Below, one piece after another: positions 1,182 through 9,571 of a stretch of 37,962 bases of DNA. The stretch spans positions 1-37,962 of the forward strand of contig JANOTC010000277.1 in NCBI GenBank assembly GCA_031416175.1, read 5' to 3'. Source of the stretch: Gammaproteobacteria bacterium. Lineage in GTDB: Bacteria > Pseudomonadota > Gammaproteobacteria > S012-40. A program made the position numbers and the translations under genes. The number at the start of each line of letters is the position of its first letter. The stretch's first letter is position 1. The notes below the pieces were generated by a model. It was not told the origin of the DNA. It ran no database searches and saw nothing but the letters and a program-made list of their open reading frames with translations.

Positions 1182-4100
1182 ATGATACAAAAAGTCATCA
1201 TTTGGTCCTTACATAATAGGCCATTAGTATTGTTATTGACCTTGGTTTTCGCCGGGTGGGGCGTTTTCGCCGTCAAGAACACGCCTTTGGACGCCATTCC
1301 CGATCTCACCGATGTGCAAGTCATCATCAAAACCAGCTATCCGGGCCAAGCGCCTGAAGTAGTTGAAGATCAAGTCACCTATCCCATCACCACCGCCATG
1401 CTTTCCGTACCCGGTTCCACCGTGGTGCGCGGTTACTCGTTTTTTGGCGATTCCTATGTTTACGTTATTTTTCGGGATGGCGTTGATATTTATTGGGCGC
1501 GCTCGCGGGTGTTGGAATACCTGAACCAGGTCACCAGCCGTCTACCCGCGGGTGCGCGTCCGCAGTTAGGCCCAGATGCGACGGGCGTGGGTTGGATTTA
1601 TGAGTACGCTTTAGTGGATCGCACCGGTCAGCACGATTTGGCGCAGTTGACCAGTATCCAGAATTGGTTCTTGAAATTCGAACTGCAAACCCTTGATGGC
1701 GTTTCCGAAGTCGCGACCGTCGGCGGCATGGTCAAGCAATACCAAGTCGTGGTGGACCCAGACCGGTTGCGTGCCTATAACCTTTCCATCGACGCGGTCA
1801 GCCGGGCTATAAAAGGCGCCAATCAAGAAGTCGGTGGCTCAGCAATCGAAATGGCCGAAGCGGAGTACATGGTTCGCGCCAAAGGTTATATTCAGAGCAT
1901 TGATGACATTAAACAAATCCCACTCGGCATCAACAAGGCCGGTACGCCGGTGTTATTGGGCGACGTCGCCATGATTCGCCTGGGGCCGCAAATGCGGCGT
2001 GGCGTTGCGGAGCTAGACGGCCAAGGCGAAGTGGTGGGCGGAATTGTTGTTATGCGTTTTGGTGAAAATGCCTTGCGCACCATTGAGTCGGTTAAAGAGA
2101 AATTAGCGGAATTGAAAAAGAGCTTGCCCGAGGGCGTAGAAATTGTCGAAACCTATGATCGTTCTGGTCTGATTACGCGCGCAGTCGCCACGCTCAAGGA
2201 TAAATTGCTGGAAGAATTTATCGTAGTGGCGATTGTGTGTGGCTTGTTTTTGTTTCATTTTCGCTCGGCACTCGTCGCCATCGTAGTTTTGCCGCTAGGA
2301 ATTTTGGTTGCCTATGTGGTGATGTATTACCAGGGTATCAACGCCAATATCATGTCTTTAGGCGGAATTGCCATCGCCATCGGTGCGATGGTGGATGCCG
2401 CGATTGTGATGGTGGAAAACACGCATAAGCATCTGGAAAAATTGGGCGATCAGGTCATCGACTATTGGGCCGTGGTGCAGAAATCAGCGTTAGAGGTCGG
2501 CCCCGCTCTATTTTTCTCATTGCTGATTATCACCTTGAGTTTCTTACCTGTGTTTACGCTACAAGCGCAAGAAGGAAAGTTGTTCGCACCGTTGGTCTAC
2601 ACCAAAACCTACGCGATGGCGGCGGCGGCAGGACTGTCTGTAACGCTCATGCCGGTGTTAATGGGCTATTTAATTCGAGGAAAAATTCCAGCCGAGCATA
2701 AAAACCCGATTAATCGGGTGTTGGTGGCCATTTATTTGCCTATTATTCGCTGGGTGCTGCAATACCCAAAAATGGTGATCGTGTTGTCGTTGCTCTGTGT
2801 TCTGAGCATTGCTTTTCCACTGACACAACTCGGCTCGGAATTTATGCCCGAGCTCGACGAAGGTGATTTGTTGTATATGCCAACGACGTTTGAAGGCATT
2901 TCAATTGGCAAGGCCAGCGAATTGCTGCAAATTACGGATCGCCTCATAAAGACGGTTCCTGAAGTCCGTACAGTTTTCGGCAAGGTGGGTCGCGCGGAAA
3001 GCGCAACGGACCCCGCGCCATTGAGCATGATAGAAACGACCATTCAACTAAAGCCAAAGTCTGAGTGGCGTGAAGGGGTGACCATCGACTCGCTACGCAA
3101 GGAGCTTGACGACTTGGTCAAATTTCCGGGGGTGACCAACGCGTGGGTCATGCCGATTAAAACCCGTATTGACATGATTTCGACCGGGATCAAAACGCCG
3201 TTAGGAATTAAAATCGCTGGTGCAGATTTAGCGACCATTCAGAAAATTGGCGAAGACGTGGAGCAAATTGTTAAGAAAATTCCGGGTGCCGCCTCCGTTT
3301 TTTCAGAGCGCGTTGCCGGCGGACGCTACATCAATATCAAGATCGACCGTCGCTCAGCGGCGCGCTACGGCTTAAACATCGTTGATGTACAAGAAGTGAT
3401 CGGAAAAGCCGTGGGTGGCGAAAATGTGTCGGAGACGGTGGAAGGGTTGGAACGCTATCCCATCAATATCCGTTACCCGGCGGATTCACGTGATTCCGTG
3501 GAAAAACTTTTGGCGCTGCCCATCGTTTCGCCGACGGGCGTGCAGGTTCCGTTGGGCGAGTTAGCGGAAGTTGAAATAGCGGACGGCCCTGGCATGGTGC
3601 GGAGTGAAAACGCGCGCCGTAACGCGTGGGTGTACGTCGACATTCGTGGGCGCGATCTGGGTGGTTTTGTCGCCGAGGCGCAGCGGTTAGTTGGCGAAAA
3701 AGTACATTTGCCGGTCGGTTACTCCATCGGCTGGTCGGGGCAATTCGAATACTTGTTGCGTGCTAAAGATCGCTTATCGTTGGTCATTCCGATTACATTG
3801 GTTGCGATTTTGTTGCTGCTATATTTAAATTTTAGAAGCTTTGTAGAGTCACTTATTGTTATGGGGGCGGTACCCTTGGCGTTGGTGGGTGCACTTTGGT
3901 TCATTTATATTCTCGGTTATCATCTTTCCGTTGCTGTCGGCGTCGGTATGATCGCCTTGGCGGGCGTGGCGGCGGAGTTTGGTGTAGTCATGTTGGTTTA
4001 CTTAAAGCATGCGGTCGATGAATACCAGCCGAAGGATATGGCGACATTGCATCGTGCGATTATCTATGGCGCCGTTATGCGGGTGCGCCCCAAAGCGATG

Positions 4101-4376
4101 ACGGCGGCGGTGGTGCTAGCCGGTTTGTTGCCTATCATGCTGATTGAGGGTACCGGCTCGGAAGTCATGCGCAGAATTGCTGCACCGATGTTAGGCGGCA
4201 TGATAACGGCGCCGTTGGTGTCGATGGTGCTTATCCCGGCGCTGTTTGTCTTGTGGAAAGGCAAGTCCTTTGGCTCTGATGGATCAGCGCCTTCCTCAAA
4301 GGGTGGCGTTTGGCAGGTCTTGGGAAAGCTCGATCCGAGGCAAAATAGTTCTTGGGCCGACATAAGTAAGAAATAG
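1182..4376 (+). CDS. cusA: Cu(I)/Ag(I) efflux RND inner-membrane pump CusA (1064 aa)
   Basis: ATG 1182 is preceded by GGAG (1170-1173) with an 8-nt spacer; the ORF-track GTG 1176 is 2 codons upstream. It is near-colinear by eye with E. coli CusA (DAIPDLTDVQVIIKTSYPGQAPEVVEDQVTYP, GPDATGVGWIYEYALVD, SLGGIAIAIGAMVDAAIVMVEN). The three Met of the CusA metal site sit in conserved contexts: EGDLLYMPTT, APLSMIETT, RIDMISTG. It has a ~35-aa C-terminal extension relative to E. coli. Confidence 0.93.
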   Translation: MIQKVIIWSLHNRPLVLLLTLVFAGWGVFAVKNTPLDAIPDLTDVQVIIKTSYPGQAPEVVEDQVTYPITTAMLSVPGSTVVRGYSFFGDSYVYVIFRDGVDIYWARSRVLEYLNQVTSRLPAGARPQLGPDATGVGWIYEYALVDRTGQHDLAQLTSIQNWFLKFELQTLDGVSEVATVGGMVKQYQVVVDPDRLRAYNLSIDAVSRAIKGANQEVGGSAIEMAEAEYMVRAKGYIQSIDDIKQIPLGINKAGTPVLLGDVAMIRLGPQMRRGVAELDGQGEVVGGIVVMRFGENALRTIESVKEKLAELKKSLPEGVEIVETYDRSGLITRAVATLKDKLLEEFIVVAIVCGLFLFHFRSALVAIVVLPLGILVAYVVMYYQGINANIMSLGGIAIAIGAMVDAAIVMVENTHKHLEKLGDQVIDYWAVVQKSALEVGPALFFSLLIITLSFLPVFTLQAQEGKLFAPLVYTKTYAMAAAAGLSVTLMPVLMGYLIRGKIPAEHKNPINRVLVAIYLPIIRWVLQYPKMVIVLSLLCVLSIAFPLTQLGSEFMPELDEGDLLYMPTTFEGISIGKASELLQITDRLIKTVPEVRTVFGKVGRAESATDPAPLSMIETTIQLKPKSEWREGVTIDSLRKELDDLVKFPGVTNAWVMPIKTRIDMISTGIKTPLGIKIAGADLATIQKIGEDVEQIVKKIPGAASVFSERVAGGRYINIKIDRRSAARYGLNIVDVQEVIGKAVGGENVSETVEGLERYPINIRYPADSRDSVEKLLALPIVSPTGVQVPLGELAEVEIADGPGMVRSENARRNAWVYVDIRGRDLGGFVAEAQRLVGEKVHLPVGYSIGWSGQFEYLLRAKDRLSLVIPITLVAILLLLYLNFRSFVESLIVMGAVPLALVGALWFIYILGYHLSVAVGVGMIALAGVAAEFGVVMLVYLKHAVDEYQPKDMATLHRAIIYGAVMRVRPKAMTAAVVLAGLLPIMLIEGTGSEVMRRIAAPMLGGMITAPLVSMVLIPALFVLWKGKSFGSDGSAPSSKGGVWQVLGKLDPRQNSSWADISKK

Positions 4377-5324: not shown

Positions 5325-8237
5325 TCATAATTGAAACGTCAGCCGCCCGTACGATTGCGTTTCTCCATACGTGTCCAAGCCCTTAGCGATGCCAAGGGTC
5401 GCTTCAATTTGAAACCGATATCCTAACGTAAATTCTGCCGCTACTTCGGCACCGACGGATCGGTACCAAGTATCTTTCCCACCCGGATTTTGCGAAGACC
5501 AAATGCGCGCGGCTTCCGTGAATACATTGCCCTTAGCACGTGTGACGCCAAGCGGTGGCGACATGGTGCCAGTTTCAAACCACCCCAGCGGGAAATGCCA
5601 ATCCGCGCTGCCGAACTGAAGTGTGTTTCCCCTTAAAGCCGCCAGTCCCGATGGATAACCATGTAAGTCAAAACTGCGCTTGTTCGCCAAGGTTGCGCTA
5701 CCGTTGCCTATCGGGTCAAATATTTGCCCGCTATCAAAGCCAAGGCGATACGGCTTCGCAGTTTCGCTTTCTATCGCGCCCAATCCACGTAATTCAACGA
5801 CGCTTCGCCAAAAGAGGGGTGTGAAATAGCCGATGGTTGCGGCGAGCGCATTTCCGGGATTTTCGCTTTCTCCGATGTTTGAGTCGAAACTTCCCTGAGC
5901 TTGAAATCCGGCTTGTCGATAAACAGCTTTGGGTAATTTACGCGCTGAATTGTATTTGGCGCCGACAAACCATTGCCCGTCGCGACCGTCCGCTGCTGCG
6001 GGACCCAAAGAATCGCGATATGATTGATGATAATAGTTATACGATGCGCCAAAATAAATTTCCTTTTGCTGTGTAACCGACACGAAAGGCAATTGAACGA
6101 CCGCTGTCAAACTGTCGTGCGTCTCGATTTCTGCAGTGATATTCGAATCTTTAAAAAGTCCAATACTGTTGCTGCGGTTTAGAAAAAGGGAAAGTGTCGG
6201 AAACCAACGATCGTAACTGTAATTGATGTCCCATGTTGTATTGCCATGCTCGGACTCGACGCTGAGCGCAACGGCATAGGTATGCCAGCTGAGCGGGTCG
6301 TGGCCGGAGGTTATTAGCGCTAGAGTCGTGCTATCGGGGCCGAAACCGATTCCTGGCAGCCACCACGTGGGTCGTAATCGCGATAGTCCGCTATAAGGTC
6401 GCGCGGAGGATACATCATTGCGCGTTGGATAGGCGGGCGCGGTAATGGCCGAGGACGCTTGCGCCGCGTCAACTGTGAGGTCGGGCTTCACTGCGACGCT
6501 TTCCGGCGCGCGCATCGTTAAGCGATATAAATCGAAACCTTTCGCATTGAGACTCGAGTAGAATAATGTACGTTTATCCGCTGAAAGGCTAGGATAGAAC
6601 GCGCCGCCTATTTCATGGGTAATTTGCTGTGTGGACCCGCTGGCCAAGTCAAATTGGTAGGCATTGTAGGTGCCATTTTCATCGTCGATGTAAATAATCG
6701 ACGTGCCATCGGCCGAAAACTGTGGCTGCGCTTTGATGCTTGAACCGTGAGTCAACGCGTGCCATTGTTTTTTCTTCAAATCGAACAGTTCGAGATTCCA
6801 TTGATCAAGGCGACGTACCGACGCAACGAATGTTAGTCCATCAGGCGCCCAATCAATGCTGCTAATTAAAACGTTTTCATCTTGCCACACTACCTCTTTG
6901 ATCTGTCCATTGGCATCTAATAGCTCTAATTGATGCTTTCCTGCGCTCAATTTAATTGCTGCAATTTGGCTCCCATCTGGACTCCATGCCGCGTAACTGT
7001 ATCTCCCCGCCGTGGTTAGGCGGCGTGATGTGCCAGTCGCTGGATCAATCTGAAACAAGTCGAAATAAAAATTGGTATTGGAACTGACTTCCCCTTGCAC
7101 AACTAAAAGACCCGCGCTAGGGTGCCAGTCAAACTGCCCGGCTGCACTCACATTGCTCACAACGTCGTGACGATTGTGTTGACTGTCAAAACGCATCAGC
7201 GCACTGAGTTGTTCACCGTCAGCACGAAGATAGTAAATACTGCCGTCTGCCGCGACACGGGAACGCCCCGTGTGGAGGCCAAGGTCGGTCAGTGCTGTGC
7301 CGGTAGCGTGTGTCGTCTGCTTCGCACGTTCTATCTCCGCGTCAAATTGTTGGTGCAAATAGGTTTCAAATTCGCGCCATAAGGTATAAAAGTCGCGTTG
7401 GCCGAAGGTGCGCATGGCGGTGGAATTCAGCATGAACGGCATGAGATTACTACTGTAATTCTCGACAAAATTTTGGATATAGGCATCGCCATAGCGGTCA
7501 TGCAAGAAGTTGAAAAAATAAACGCCATATACGTAGCGTGCTGTTCCACCCGGCCAAGTTACTAATGGCTGATTTAAAGCGTCTAGTGATTTAAAGCCGT
7601 TAATCAATTCATTGCGCATTAGCATGCGAAAGTAGGTGGATTGACCGCGGCCAACTCCGCGTTCTTGATCGGTCTCCATATAGGTTGCTAGACCTTCGAC
7701 AATCCAGGTCGGTTCGAAATGATTGGGAAAAAGAAGGGGTAAAAAAGGGAAAAATCTGCCAACAAAATGCCGTAGGCGTTCTGGCGGGCCAACTGCTTTG
7801 TCTAAATGCAATATATGCACATATTCGTGTTGAAACACGCGGGCTAAGGAATCGTCGTTGTCTTCGAGTCCATCAACATCGGACGATGGTGCAACGTGAA
7901 CCAAAATTTGATTAAAGGGCAAAGACGACGCGGAGCCGTTTACATAGTCCCACTGGTCGGCGACGATGACTTGAGTTTTTTCGCGCGGCACCCATTTGAA
8001 ATACAAGCTGAGCCGATCATGGATTGGCTCAGCTTGTTGCGCGAGTTTGTTAGCCACGGCTTCCAAACCCACCGAATAGTGAAATTCAAAGTGAGGGGTT
8101 TCAATGGTTTGCCAGCTGGCGGCGGAATCAAACTCGCGTGCTGCTTGGGCTGGCCAAGGTGCTGTTCCAAACAGAAAAAACCCGAGCGCCATAACGACGC
8201 GGGGCGCACTCTGGCGTCGCTTGAACATATTAAACAT
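5325..8237 (-). CDS. Secreted multidomain protein: peptidase-MA/gluzincin-like domain + PD40 (TolB-like) beta-propeller repeats + Omp85-like C-terminal beta-barrel (970 aa)
   Basis: The start is taken at ATG 8237 (MFNMFKRRQSAPRVVMALGFFLFGTAPWPAQA|A is a signal peptide), not at the ORF-track 8363, which overlaps argA. HEYVH is at 7815-7829 and WIVEGLATY lies ~40 aa later (gluzincin third ligand). PD40-like repeats are AAWSPDGSQIAA (6957-6992), IDWAPDGLTFVA (6822-6857), PQFSADGTSIIY (6690-6725) and YPSLSADKRTLFY (6558-6596). The C-terminal ~350 aa has alternating beta-strand character and an ALRGNTLQFGSADWHFPL motif (5586-5639) reminiscent of the Omp85 RG[YF] loop. Confidence 0.8.
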   Translation of the reverse strand: MFNMFKRRQSAPRVVMALGFFLFGTAPWPAQAAREFDSAASWQTIETPHFEFHYSVGLEAVANKLAQQAEPIHDRLSLYFKWVPREKTQVIVADQWDYVNGSASSLPFNQILVHVAPSSDVDGLEDNDDSLARVFQHEYVHILHLDKAVGPPERLRHFVGRFFPFLPLLFPNHFEPTWIVEGLATYMETDQERGVGRGQSTYFRMLMRNELINGFKSLDALNQPLVTWPGGTARYVYGVYFFNFLHDRYGDAYIQNFVENYSSNLMPFMLNSTAMRTFGQRDFYTLWREFETYLHQQFDAEIERAKQTTHATGTALTDLGLHTGRSRVAADGSIYYLRADGEQLSALMRFDSQHNRHDVVSNVSAAGQFDWHPSAGLLVVQGEVSSNTNFYFDLFQIDPATGTSRRLTTAGRYSYAAWSPDGSQIAAIKLSAGKHQLELLDANGQIKEVVWQDENVLISSIDWAPDGLTFVASVRRLDQWNLELFDLKKKQWHALTHGSSIKAQPQFSADGTSIIYIDDENGTYNAYQFDLASGSTQQITHEIGGAFYPSLSADKRTLFYSSLNAKGFDLYRLTMRAPESVAVKPDLTVDAAQASSAITAPAYPTRNDVSSARPYSGLSRLRPTWWLPGIGFGPDSTTLALITSGHDPLSWHTYAVALSVESEHGNTTWDINYSYDRWFPTLSLFLNRSNSIGLFKDSNITAEIETHDSLTAVVQLPFVSVTQQKEIYFGASYNYYHQSYRDSLGPAAADGRDGQWFVGAKYNSARKLPKAVYRQAGFQAQGSFDSNIGESENPGNALAATIGYFTPLFWRSVVELRGLGAIESETAKPYRLGFDSGQIFDPIGNGSATLANKRSFDLHGYPSGLAALRGNTLQFGSADWHFPLGWFETGTMSPPLGVTRAKGNVFTEAARIWSSQNPGGKDTWYRSVGAEVAAEFTLGYRFQIEATLGIAKGLDTYGETQSYGRLTFQL

Positions 8238-9571
8238 TAGCGCCCCGTGCTGGTGAGTTTTTTTATAAATACTTTGGAACGGCGTTGATAGTTGTACATG
8301 GCCTGCCTTTCGACGGGCAAGTCGGTCAACGTCGCTTCTTCGAACCCGTGTTCCAAAAACCAATGCGCCGTCCTGGCGGTTAAAACGAATAAGCGTTGAA
8401 CGCCCTTTTTCACTGCGAATTGCTCAGCCATATTCAGTAGAGTTTGTGCCCGCCCTTCGCGACGATAGTCAGGATGCACGGCTAGGCAGGCCAATTCTGC
8501 GACAAAATCTTGCGGAAATGGATAAATTGCGCTGCACGCGATAATCATTCCGTCGCGTTCCATCACCGCAAAATGATCGATTTCCATTTCGAGACGTTCG
8601 CGCGAGCGCCGCACCAAGATCCCGTCGCGTTCTAAAGGCTCGATCAGCTCCAATATCCCCCCGACATCGTCAATGGTGGCACGCCGTAGCGCATCATAAC
8701 GGTCTGCGGTAATTAAGGTGCCAATGCCATTGCGCGTGAACAGTTCAAGCAAAAGTGCGCCGTCACGGTTGCCATCAAAGATATGCGTACGCCGCACGCC
8801 ACCGGCACAGGCTTTCGCTGCGTTGAGCAAATAATGGCGTTGCGTGTCTGATGCCAGCTCGTTAGACACGAGTAATTGTTGCGCTGCACTTAATGTTAGG
8901 TGTGGAAGTAATTCTTGATTTTTAGTCACGCCCGGTTCATTGGTCAGCAATAGCAGTTTATCCGCCTTGAGTTCCGTGGCGATGGCCGTGGCCACATCTT
9001 CAGCCGTTAGATTAAATATTTCTCCGGTCGGCGAATAACCAATCGACGATAACAATACGATTTCGTCGCGATGCAAATGATGGCGAATCGCTTCGGCATC
9101 GACGCGGCGCACTTCGCCCGTGTGGCAATAGTCAATGCCGTTGCGCACACCATACGGCCTGGCCGTTACGAAATTACCACTCGCCGCTCGCAAACGCGCG
9201 CCGGCCATGGGTGAATTAGCCAAGCCCATCGACAACATCGCTTCCACTTCCATGTGAACGCGGCCGATGGCTTCTTTGACTAAGGGGAGCGTTGCGCCAT
9301 CGGTAATACGAATGCCGTTAACGAGGCGACTTGCTATGCCTGCATCGTTAATCCGCGCTTCGATTTGTGGGCGGGCGCCCAATACGAGGCAAAGCTTGAC
9401 CCCGAGGCTGTCCAGAAGCGCGATGTCGTGCACGATGTCGGGAAATTGCGCGCTGGCGATGGTATCGCCTTCGAGCAAAATAACGAACGTGCGTCCCCGG
9501 TGGGCGTTGATATACGGCGACGCATGTCGAAACCAATGGACGAATTGCTCGCCGTCGAACGTCTCCCGCAC
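8237..9571 (-). CDS. argA: Amino-acid N-acetyltransferase (N-acetylglutamate synthase)
   Basis: 444 aa. The N-terminus FVHWFRHASPYINAHRGRTFVILLEG matches the ArgA kinase-like fold start, and the C-terminus looks like a GNAT domain. It has a GTG start with AGGGAGG 7 nt upstream. Confidence 0.9.
   Translation of the reverse strand: MRETFDGEQFVHWFRHASPYINAHRGRTFVILLEGDTIASAQFPDIVHDIALLDSLGVKLCLVLGARPQIEARINDAGIASRLVNGIRITDGATLPLVKEAIGRVHMEVEAMLSMGLANSPMAGARLRAASGNFVTARPYGVRNGIDYCHTGEVRRVDAEAIRHHLHRDEIVLLSSIGYSPTGEIFNLTAEDVATAIATELKADKLLLLTNEPGVTKNQELLPHLTLSAAQQLLVSNELASDTQRHYLLNAAKACAGGVRRTHIFDGNRDGALLLELFTRNGIGTLITADRYDALRRATIDDVGGILELIEPLERDGILVRRSRERLEMEIDHFAVMERDGMIIACSAIYPFPQDFVAELACLAVHPDYRREGRAQTLLNMAEQFAVKKGVQRLFVLTARTAHWFLEHGFEEATLTDLPVERQAMYNYQRRSKVFIKKLTSTGR

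Follow-up and report, generated by a model that had tools for sequence, protein, structure and literature searches.

We analysed a stretch of 37,962 nucleotides from a Gammaproteobacteria bacterium (assembly GCA_031416175.1, contig JANOTC010000277.1), hereafter the window, with a focus on one reverse-strand gene that encodes a single polypeptide of 970 amino acids. The protein combines a predicted zinc-peptidase domain, a TolB-like β-propeller and a C-terminal Omp85-type barrel. This three-part design has already been recorded, and the gene is a further member of the uncharacterised WD40-like subfamily of Omp85 proteins. As to its function, we consider it most likely, and on balance probable, that the protein is a membrane-tethered zinc peptidase that faces the periplasm, and whose propeller serves as a substrate-binding or filtering module. 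An earlier interpretation of the same DNA, made without database searches (the sequence-only reading), had proposed the fusion of these three parts in one open reading frame, and this was borne out: the frame is open, and the full-length AlphaFold2 model (predicted local distance difference test score, pLDDT, 88.8; predicted template modelling score, pTM, 0.90) and the Foldseek comparisons agree with it.

The Omp85 superfamily has been divided into ten subfamilies, one of which, named "WD40-like", carries a TolB-like propeller ahead of the barrel and was proposed to represent a BamA-BamB-like fusion (Heinz and Lithgow, 2014; Front Microbiol 5:370, PMC4104836). Table S2 of that study lists 62 WD40-like proteins, and Table S3 gives, for the members, the BamA/TamA barrel, TolB and a "best aminopeptidase hit" (Phyre2 templates 1z5h, 4kxd and 4fgm); the peptidase is listed there without discussion in the text. 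The subfamily was still uncharacterised a decade later (Hanson et al., 2024; PMC11116518). The protein from the window has the barrel, the propeller and the aminopeptidase-like domain, and matches the published description of the subfamily. Our literature searches on the peptidase-propeller-Omp85 architecture returned the 2014 catalogue and passing mentions only. The sequence-only reading, which could name no characterised member with this domain order, was right that no member has been characterised, while the order itself was catalogued in 2014.

The N-terminal zinc-peptidase domain

A missing peptidase fold around the HExxH motif, the outcome that the sequence-only reading had named as damaging to it, is not what we found: the AlphaFold2 model of the domain alone (pLDDT 92.3) has a gluzincin fold. 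The matches listed by Foldseek for this model were almost all gluzincins (E 1e-4 to 5e-3, TMq 0.45-0.59), and included Vibrio and clostridial M9 collagenases, an M61 enzyme and, within family M1, a Deinococcus M1 enzyme, ERAP2, IRAP, APN and LTA4H. The HEYVH and WIVEGLATY motifs lie where they had been placed, and their residues are conserved. Conservation was assessed in three alignments: A1 (52 sequences), A2 (60 sequences, with more distant relatives added) and A4 (61 sequences, an independent set from genome loci). The two histidines and the glutamate of HEYVH (H137, E138, H141) and the presumed third zinc ligand E181 are invariant in A2 and A4; in A1, no variation is seen at E138, E181 and G182, and conservation is at least 90% at H137 and H141. 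G182 shares the invariance of E181 in all three alignments, and A1 further shows invariant E188 and Y235, with R197 and R208 nearly so. HExxH is found in 189 of 191 full-length relatives, and is followed by EG in 186 of these 191. The EG motif, mostly EG[LI]A, lies 33-48 residues past HExxH in the family, with a mode of 35, and the His-to-Glu spacing in the query is 39 residues. Three distant homologues score above the threshold of Pfam Peptidase_MA_2 (PF13485, 32.4 bits), namely P0062 with 39.6, P0068 with 37.7 and P0077 with 32.7 bits. Because the motifs are conserved, the fold matches are gluzincins and relatives pass Peptidase_MA_2, we assign the domain to clan MA(E), whose HExxH with a downstream Glu and thermolysin-like fold are present here, as judged from the motifs and the predicted fold. 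On this model, the domain is a zinc peptidase with intact catalytic residues.

The sequence-only reading had further described the domain as M1-like. In M1 peptidases the HExxH motif and the downstream Glu are separated by 18 residues (HExxH-x18-E), and a GxMEN motif anchors the free N-terminus of the substrate. No GAMEN is present in the query, and the conserved edge-strand motif of the family is NGxATP, not GxMEN. Since GxMEN is absent and the spacing is 39 rather than 18, the peptidase does not belong to family M1; the gluzincin part of the description stands, the M1 part does not, and M9 enzymes were matched as well. From these sequence features we infer an active endo- or oligopeptidase rather than an M1-type aminopeptidase.

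The TolB-like propeller

The propeller is TolB-like, and the protein is not TolB. TolB was the best match both by sequence profile (whole-protein profile, E about 1e-30) and by fold (Foldseek, E 2.7e-11), and it was the only match when the query sequence was searched against PDB (residues 416-557, E 2.5e-11). With the NCBIfam TolB model (TIGR02800), residues 417-576 scored 88.2 bits, below the equivalog cut-off of 343, and the source genome has a separate TolB-like locus (C564). Pfam PD40 detected one repeat above threshold (28.8 bits, cut-off 20.9). At least four PD40 repeats had been read from the sequence, and four motifs of this type are indeed present within nucleotides 6573-6986: WSPDG (418), WAPDG (463), FSADG (507) and LSADK (551). 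In its strand pattern, the model is consistent with six four-stranded blades; because the motifs are found in four, the two N-terminal blades lack it. Propellers of the TolB type are periplasmic modules.

The linker and the Omp85-type barrel

The beta-barrel character that the sequence-only reading had noted in the C-terminal region was confirmed by the model: AlphaFold2 places 16 strands over residues 625-969, and strands 11 and 12 are joined by a 48-residue loop, which corresponds in position to loop 6 of Omp85 proteins. Foldseek matched this region to dozens of BamA structures (E 2e-8 to 1e-7). Among the 52 full-length homologues, 18 match Pfam Omp85 (PF01103, E<=0.01; best E 9.6e-12), and the whole-protein profile gave marginal matches to TamA and a POTRA protein in PDB (E about 0.03). 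When the family barrel profile was compared by hhalign with a 622-aa TamA-like Omp85 protein from the same genome, the two aligned with a probability of 92% (E 6e-7). This alignment pairs LHGYPSG of the query with VRGYRYN of the TamA-like protein, LRGNTLQFGSADWHFPL with VGGRHLTLASIEYEQPIS, and FTEAARIW with FTDSGNAF. It follows that the RG[YF] segment had been misplaced in the sequence-only reading, which assigned it to ALRGNTLQ... (867-884); the true motif is LHGYP (858-862), and the earlier assignment was eight residues off. The same reading had the peptidase and the propeller stand in place of POTRA domains, and here we concur, as the Pfam search of the query found no POTRA domain and, in the model, nothing but a linker separates the propeller from strand 1. 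The end of this linker carries a conserved Y..P..W.P segment ahead of strand 1, in which Y615, P623, W626 and P628 are nearly invariant (A1).

In FhaC and BamA, loop 6 is locked within the barrel by a contact between its Arg and the strand-13 Asp. Among 191 relatives, Arg occupies the loop-6 position in 168 and His in 6, with RG[YF] in about 88%; the strand-13 position is Asp in 102 and Glu in 62, so that it is acidic in 86%. Both the RGY motif and the acidic strand-13 residue are present in 156 of the 191. Where the loop-6 Arg is replaced by Pro or Lys, the strand-13 acid is usually lost too, and in five of the six cases with His the partner is Glu. Judged by this co-variation at the sequence level, most members would have a functional Omp85 barrel, with a rare His/Glu variant in the query. 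Phe is the C-terminal residue of 151 of the 191 relatives; in the query this residue is Leu, and a Phe stands at position -3.

Proposed mechanism and alternatives

According to the mechanism that we favour, the protein would be exported by the Sec pathway, and its C-terminal 16-stranded barrel would anchor it in the outer membrane. A linker of about 49 residues would connect the barrel to the propeller, with the peptidase N-terminal to the latter. Both the peptidase and the propeller would remain in the periplasm, as do the enzyme domain of PlpD and the POTRA domains whose place they take. The propeller may bind or filter extended polypeptides, and the barrel would hold the peptidase activity at the inner face of the outer membrane. 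Turnover or processing of envelope proteins, for example of misassembled outer-membrane proteins or lipoproteins, would be the likely role. The barrel points to this topology: with loop 6 located between strands 11 and 12, strand 1 begins on the periplasmic side, and the N-terminal domains would by default lie in the periplasm. POTRA-less subfamilies of Omp85 proteins were accepted by Heinz and Lithgow (PMC4104836).

Several points weigh against this mechanism. The Pfam profiles that the sequence-only reading had named gave a divided result: PD40 was matched, whereas Peptidase_MA_2 (no hit) and Omp85 (no match at E<=1) were missed by the query and passed by homologues; nor did the query match any other peptidase model. 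The profiles of the peptidase domain (A4) and of the barrel (A3) found nothing significant among PDB sequences either, so that predicted structure and homologues are the basis on which these domains are assigned. With its HGY and Glu-x-Ala variants, the barrel of the query may differ from the family norm. The strand parity is also compatible with an autotransporter-like arrangement, in which the linker passes through the pore, and distant relatives have a link with PorU and PorV, proteins whose site of action is the cell surface. Finally, no member of the family has been studied by experiment.

One alternative is a self-exported surface protease of the type V kind, in which the barrel itself, or a hybrid of it with BamA, passes the peptidase and the propeller outward to be displayed or released. 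The sequence-only reading had proposed display on, or export through, the protein's own barrel; we found no support for this, and consider it unlikely. The order of passenger, linker and barrel does resemble that of autotransporters, a linker of 49 residues is long enough to span the membrane, distant relatives adjoin PorU and PorV, and the possibility of translocation was raised for enzyme-bearing Omp85 proteins (Heinz and Lithgow, 2014; PMC4104836). By contrast, PlpD, the model case for the idea and the nearest studied analogue, has an N-terminal enzyme domain that was shown to be periplasmic and not secreted (Hanson et al., 2024; PMC11116518). The loop-6/strand-13 lock is conserved in the family, which implies that the lumen is filled by loop 6 and not by the linker. 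The passenger, with a closed propeller in it, would amount to about 540 folded residues, and propellers of this type are at home in the periplasm.

Alternatively, the protein could be a BamA/TamA-like insertase or translocase, with the propeller as a built-in BamB-like scaffold and a peptidase that only trims or checks the clients. Every Omp85 protein studied so far assembles or translocates proteins (PMC11116518), the Omp85 signature motifs are retained in most of the family, and this is the reading that Heinz and Lithgow (PMC4104836) put forward as a BamA-BamB fusion. We nevertheless consider it improbable. It lacks the POTRA domains on which client handling by BamA, TamA and TpsB relies, and the lock residues of the query are variant. 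Besides a second copy of the architecture described below, the genome has at least four further Omp85 loci above the Pfam cut-off, including BamA-like and TamA-like ones, and catalytic residues as strictly conserved as these argue for proteolysis as the core activity.

The barrel could also be more than an anchor: in the manner of BamA, its lateral seam might recognise outer-membrane proteins that are stalled or misfolded by their C-terminal beta-signal, and pass them via the propeller to the attached periplasmic protease. This is a speculative extension to which we give rather little credence; if true, the protein would be a self-contained machine for the removal of outer-membrane proteins, and the first Omp85 protein for degradation. 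The His/Glu variant of the loop-6 lock could then mark a sub-functionalised paralogue. That the HExxH domain is inactive and only binds a partner, the protein being structural, is very improbable: motif loss does occur, as seen in homologue P0044, where a degenerate REYAK...DG replaces HExxH...EG, but the query and 186 of the 191 relatives retain both motifs, and the nearby E188 and Y235 are invariant.

Gene ends and genomic context

The coordinates of the gene and its parts are collected in Table 1. The ATG start codon occupies positions 8237-8235 and the TGA stop codon positions 5327-5325. The TAA of argA, at 8239-8237, shares one base with this ATG. A longer frame starting with TTG was rejected, as it extends back into argA and is unnecessary. 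Residues 1-32 look like a Sec signal peptide, as had been proposed from the sequence: a basic n-region (KRR) and a hydrophobic core are followed by AQA/A, where the slash marks the end of the putative signal peptide, and pLDDT is below 50 at residues 1-33. A scan for promoters and terminators performed no better than on shuffled sequence.

Table 1. Positions in the window of the peptidase-propeller-Omp85 gene, its predicted domains and its sequence motifs.
Feature	Positions	Strand	Basis
Whole gene, 970 codons and TGA stop	5325..8237	-	Open frame and translation; both ends checked on the sequence
TAATG overlap of the argA stop and the gene start	8235..8239	-	Read on the sequence
Putative signal peptide, residues 1-32 (MFNMFKRRQSAPRVVMALGFFLFGTAPWPAQA/A)	8142..8237	-	Read from the sequence; low model confidence
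Gluzincin-fold zinc-peptidase domain (predicted), residues 34-310	7308..8138	-	Domain model, Foldseek, Pfam matches of distant homologues
HEYVH, residues 137-141, with the catalytic Glu and two His as zinc ligands	7815..7829	-	Conservation
WIVEGLATY, residues 178-186; E181 presumed third zinc ligand	7680..7706	-	Conservation
Six-bladed TolB-like PD40 beta-propeller, residues 313-575	6513..7301	-	Pfam PD40, TolB matches, model strands
Linker, residues 576-624	6366..6512	-	Partly disordered; pLDDT <50 at 579-597
16-stranded Omp85-type barrel, residues 625-970	5328..6365	-	Model strands, Foldseek BamA, Pfam matches of homologues, hhalign
LHGYPSG, residues 858-864, loop-6 (V/I)RG(Y/F) motif with His for Arg	5646..5666	-	Aligns with family LRGYP and TamA-like VRGY
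FTEAARIW, residues 906-913, strand-13 (F/G)xDxG motif with E for D and A for G	5499..5522	-	Aligns with family FxDxGxAW and TamA-like FTDSG

Upstream, on the same strand, lie argA and a gene for a LysR regulator; downstream, in convergent orientation, there are a DUF2231 gene and, beyond it, cusB-cusA. The orthologue is directly preceded by argA in four of five genomes from the same family, yet in only two of 80 wider loci, and we therefore regard the argA overlap as lineage-specific synteny. When all flanking open reading frames of the 80 loci were clustered, no neighbour family was found in more than eight of them, and three distant homologues lie in varied, unrelated housekeeping contexts. 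The gene is accordingly a stand-alone one. A link to RND pumps or cusA was considered and set aside, as a cusA-like neighbour occurs in two of the 80 loci only and is probably there by chance. On one homologue contig (L015:3-2819), the gene immediately upstream, in the same orientation, is for an RND efflux pump; this 938-aa gene had been a candidate for a tandem paralogue, and was rejected because it encodes the RND transporter and is no copy.

A second copy of the architecture is present in the source genome (G000), split over the ends of two contigs (C284:~3050-4123, locus L097, and C450:3-1883, locus L005). The two halves overlap in DGQGE and have the same best match, P0141, with 74% and 69% identity, respectively. 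This copy has HEYAH, a canonical LRGYPEG and a terminal Phe, scores 32.6 bits with Pfam Omp85 (cut-off 24), and is 33-41% identical to the copy in the window. As for the other Omp85 genes of this genome, the 622-aa TamA-like gene (L002:490-3800, on contig C91) has a 4-base overlap with a following long open frame, which is probably tamB and runs off the locus.

Family size and distribution

An exhaustive search returned 1219 cluster representatives (50% identity) at E<=1e-30, and of the best 150, nearly all align over the full length. A word-indexed search gave more than 50 full-length relatives of 940-1000 aa with 22-63% identity, which are unnamed or annotated as "TolB family", "PD40 domain-containing" or "hypothetical", and a scan of species genomes located relatives in at least 578 stretches. 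The gammaproteobacterial carriers include Acidiferrobacterales, Ectothiorhodospiraceae, Tenderia, Pleionea, Alcanivorax and relatives of Oceanospirillum; other carriers include Gallionellaceae and further Betaproteobacteria, Nitrospirota, Desulfuromonadales, Myxococcales and Acidobacteriota. Among 15 sampled genomes of the source organism's own family, 11 have a match at E<=1e-70, of which eight cover the whole protein and three are partial, being cut at contig ends. By comparison, one of 25 genomes from other families of the same class has a full-length match, and the others match through TolB only. The carriers include the cultured strains Alcanivorax limicola JB21 and Pleionea mediterranea DSM 25350.

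This single gene adds little beyond another member of the subfamily, and it is the family as a whole that deserves experiment. A large, multi-phylum family that keeps what its sequences suggest is an active protease represents a real gap in outer-membrane biology. The enzyme-carrying subfamilies are an open frontier of the Omp85 superfamily, and for one of them PlpD has already overturned the secretion model.

The type IX secretion link of distant relatives

Some distant relatives are encoded next to genes of type IX secretion. The genes of P0077 and P0062, relatives of about 1000-1085 aa (one locus being L098:2488-9991), directly follow porV and an FG-GAP cargo-like gene; at the P0077 locus, a gene for a PorU-type C25 peptidase precedes porV, and sprA is nearby. 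The gene in the window does not lie in a porU/porV cassette, its neighbours being argA and the convergent DUF2231 gene. A search of the source genome, which is 95% complete, for PorV gave no match while the control was positive, and a search of the same genome for type IX sorting domains gave none either, a weak negative as its controls were also blank. With no type IX secretion genes found, and no operon partners in the clade of about 950 residues, the core function cannot depend on type IX secretion. Within the proteobacterial clade, the protein would act on its own, having neither an operon partner nor a type IX secretion system.

Comparison with known systems

The relatives linked to type IX secretion come from other phyla and have the same three domains in about 1000-1100 aa, with 23-26% identity to the query. 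They differ from it in that they lie in porU/porV cassettes, whereas the clade of the window has no conserved neighbours. Taken part by part, the query resembles several well-known proteins. The peptidase domain shares the thermolysin-like fold and the HExxH with a downstream Glu with gluzincins (M9, M1, Peptidase_MA_2), but it lacks the flanking domains of the M1 and M9 enzymes. The propeller resembles that of TolB, but the N-terminal domain of TolB is absent and the score reaches only 88 bits against the required 343. The barrel has the 16 strands of BamA and TamA, and at the positions of the RGY-type motif of loop 6 and the FxDxG-type motif of strand 13 it carries the variants HGY and FxExA; it differs further in the absence of POTRA domains, in its terminal Leu instead of Phe, and in failing the Pfam Omp85 model. 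The closest parallel in overall design is PlpD, a patatin-like Omp85 protein (formerly "type Vd secretion"), which likewise joins an N-terminal enzyme domain to a 16-stranded barrel. PlpD, which is dimeric, has a patatin lipase together with a single POTRA domain, whereas the protein described here has a predicted zinc peptidase and a propeller, and no POTRA domain.

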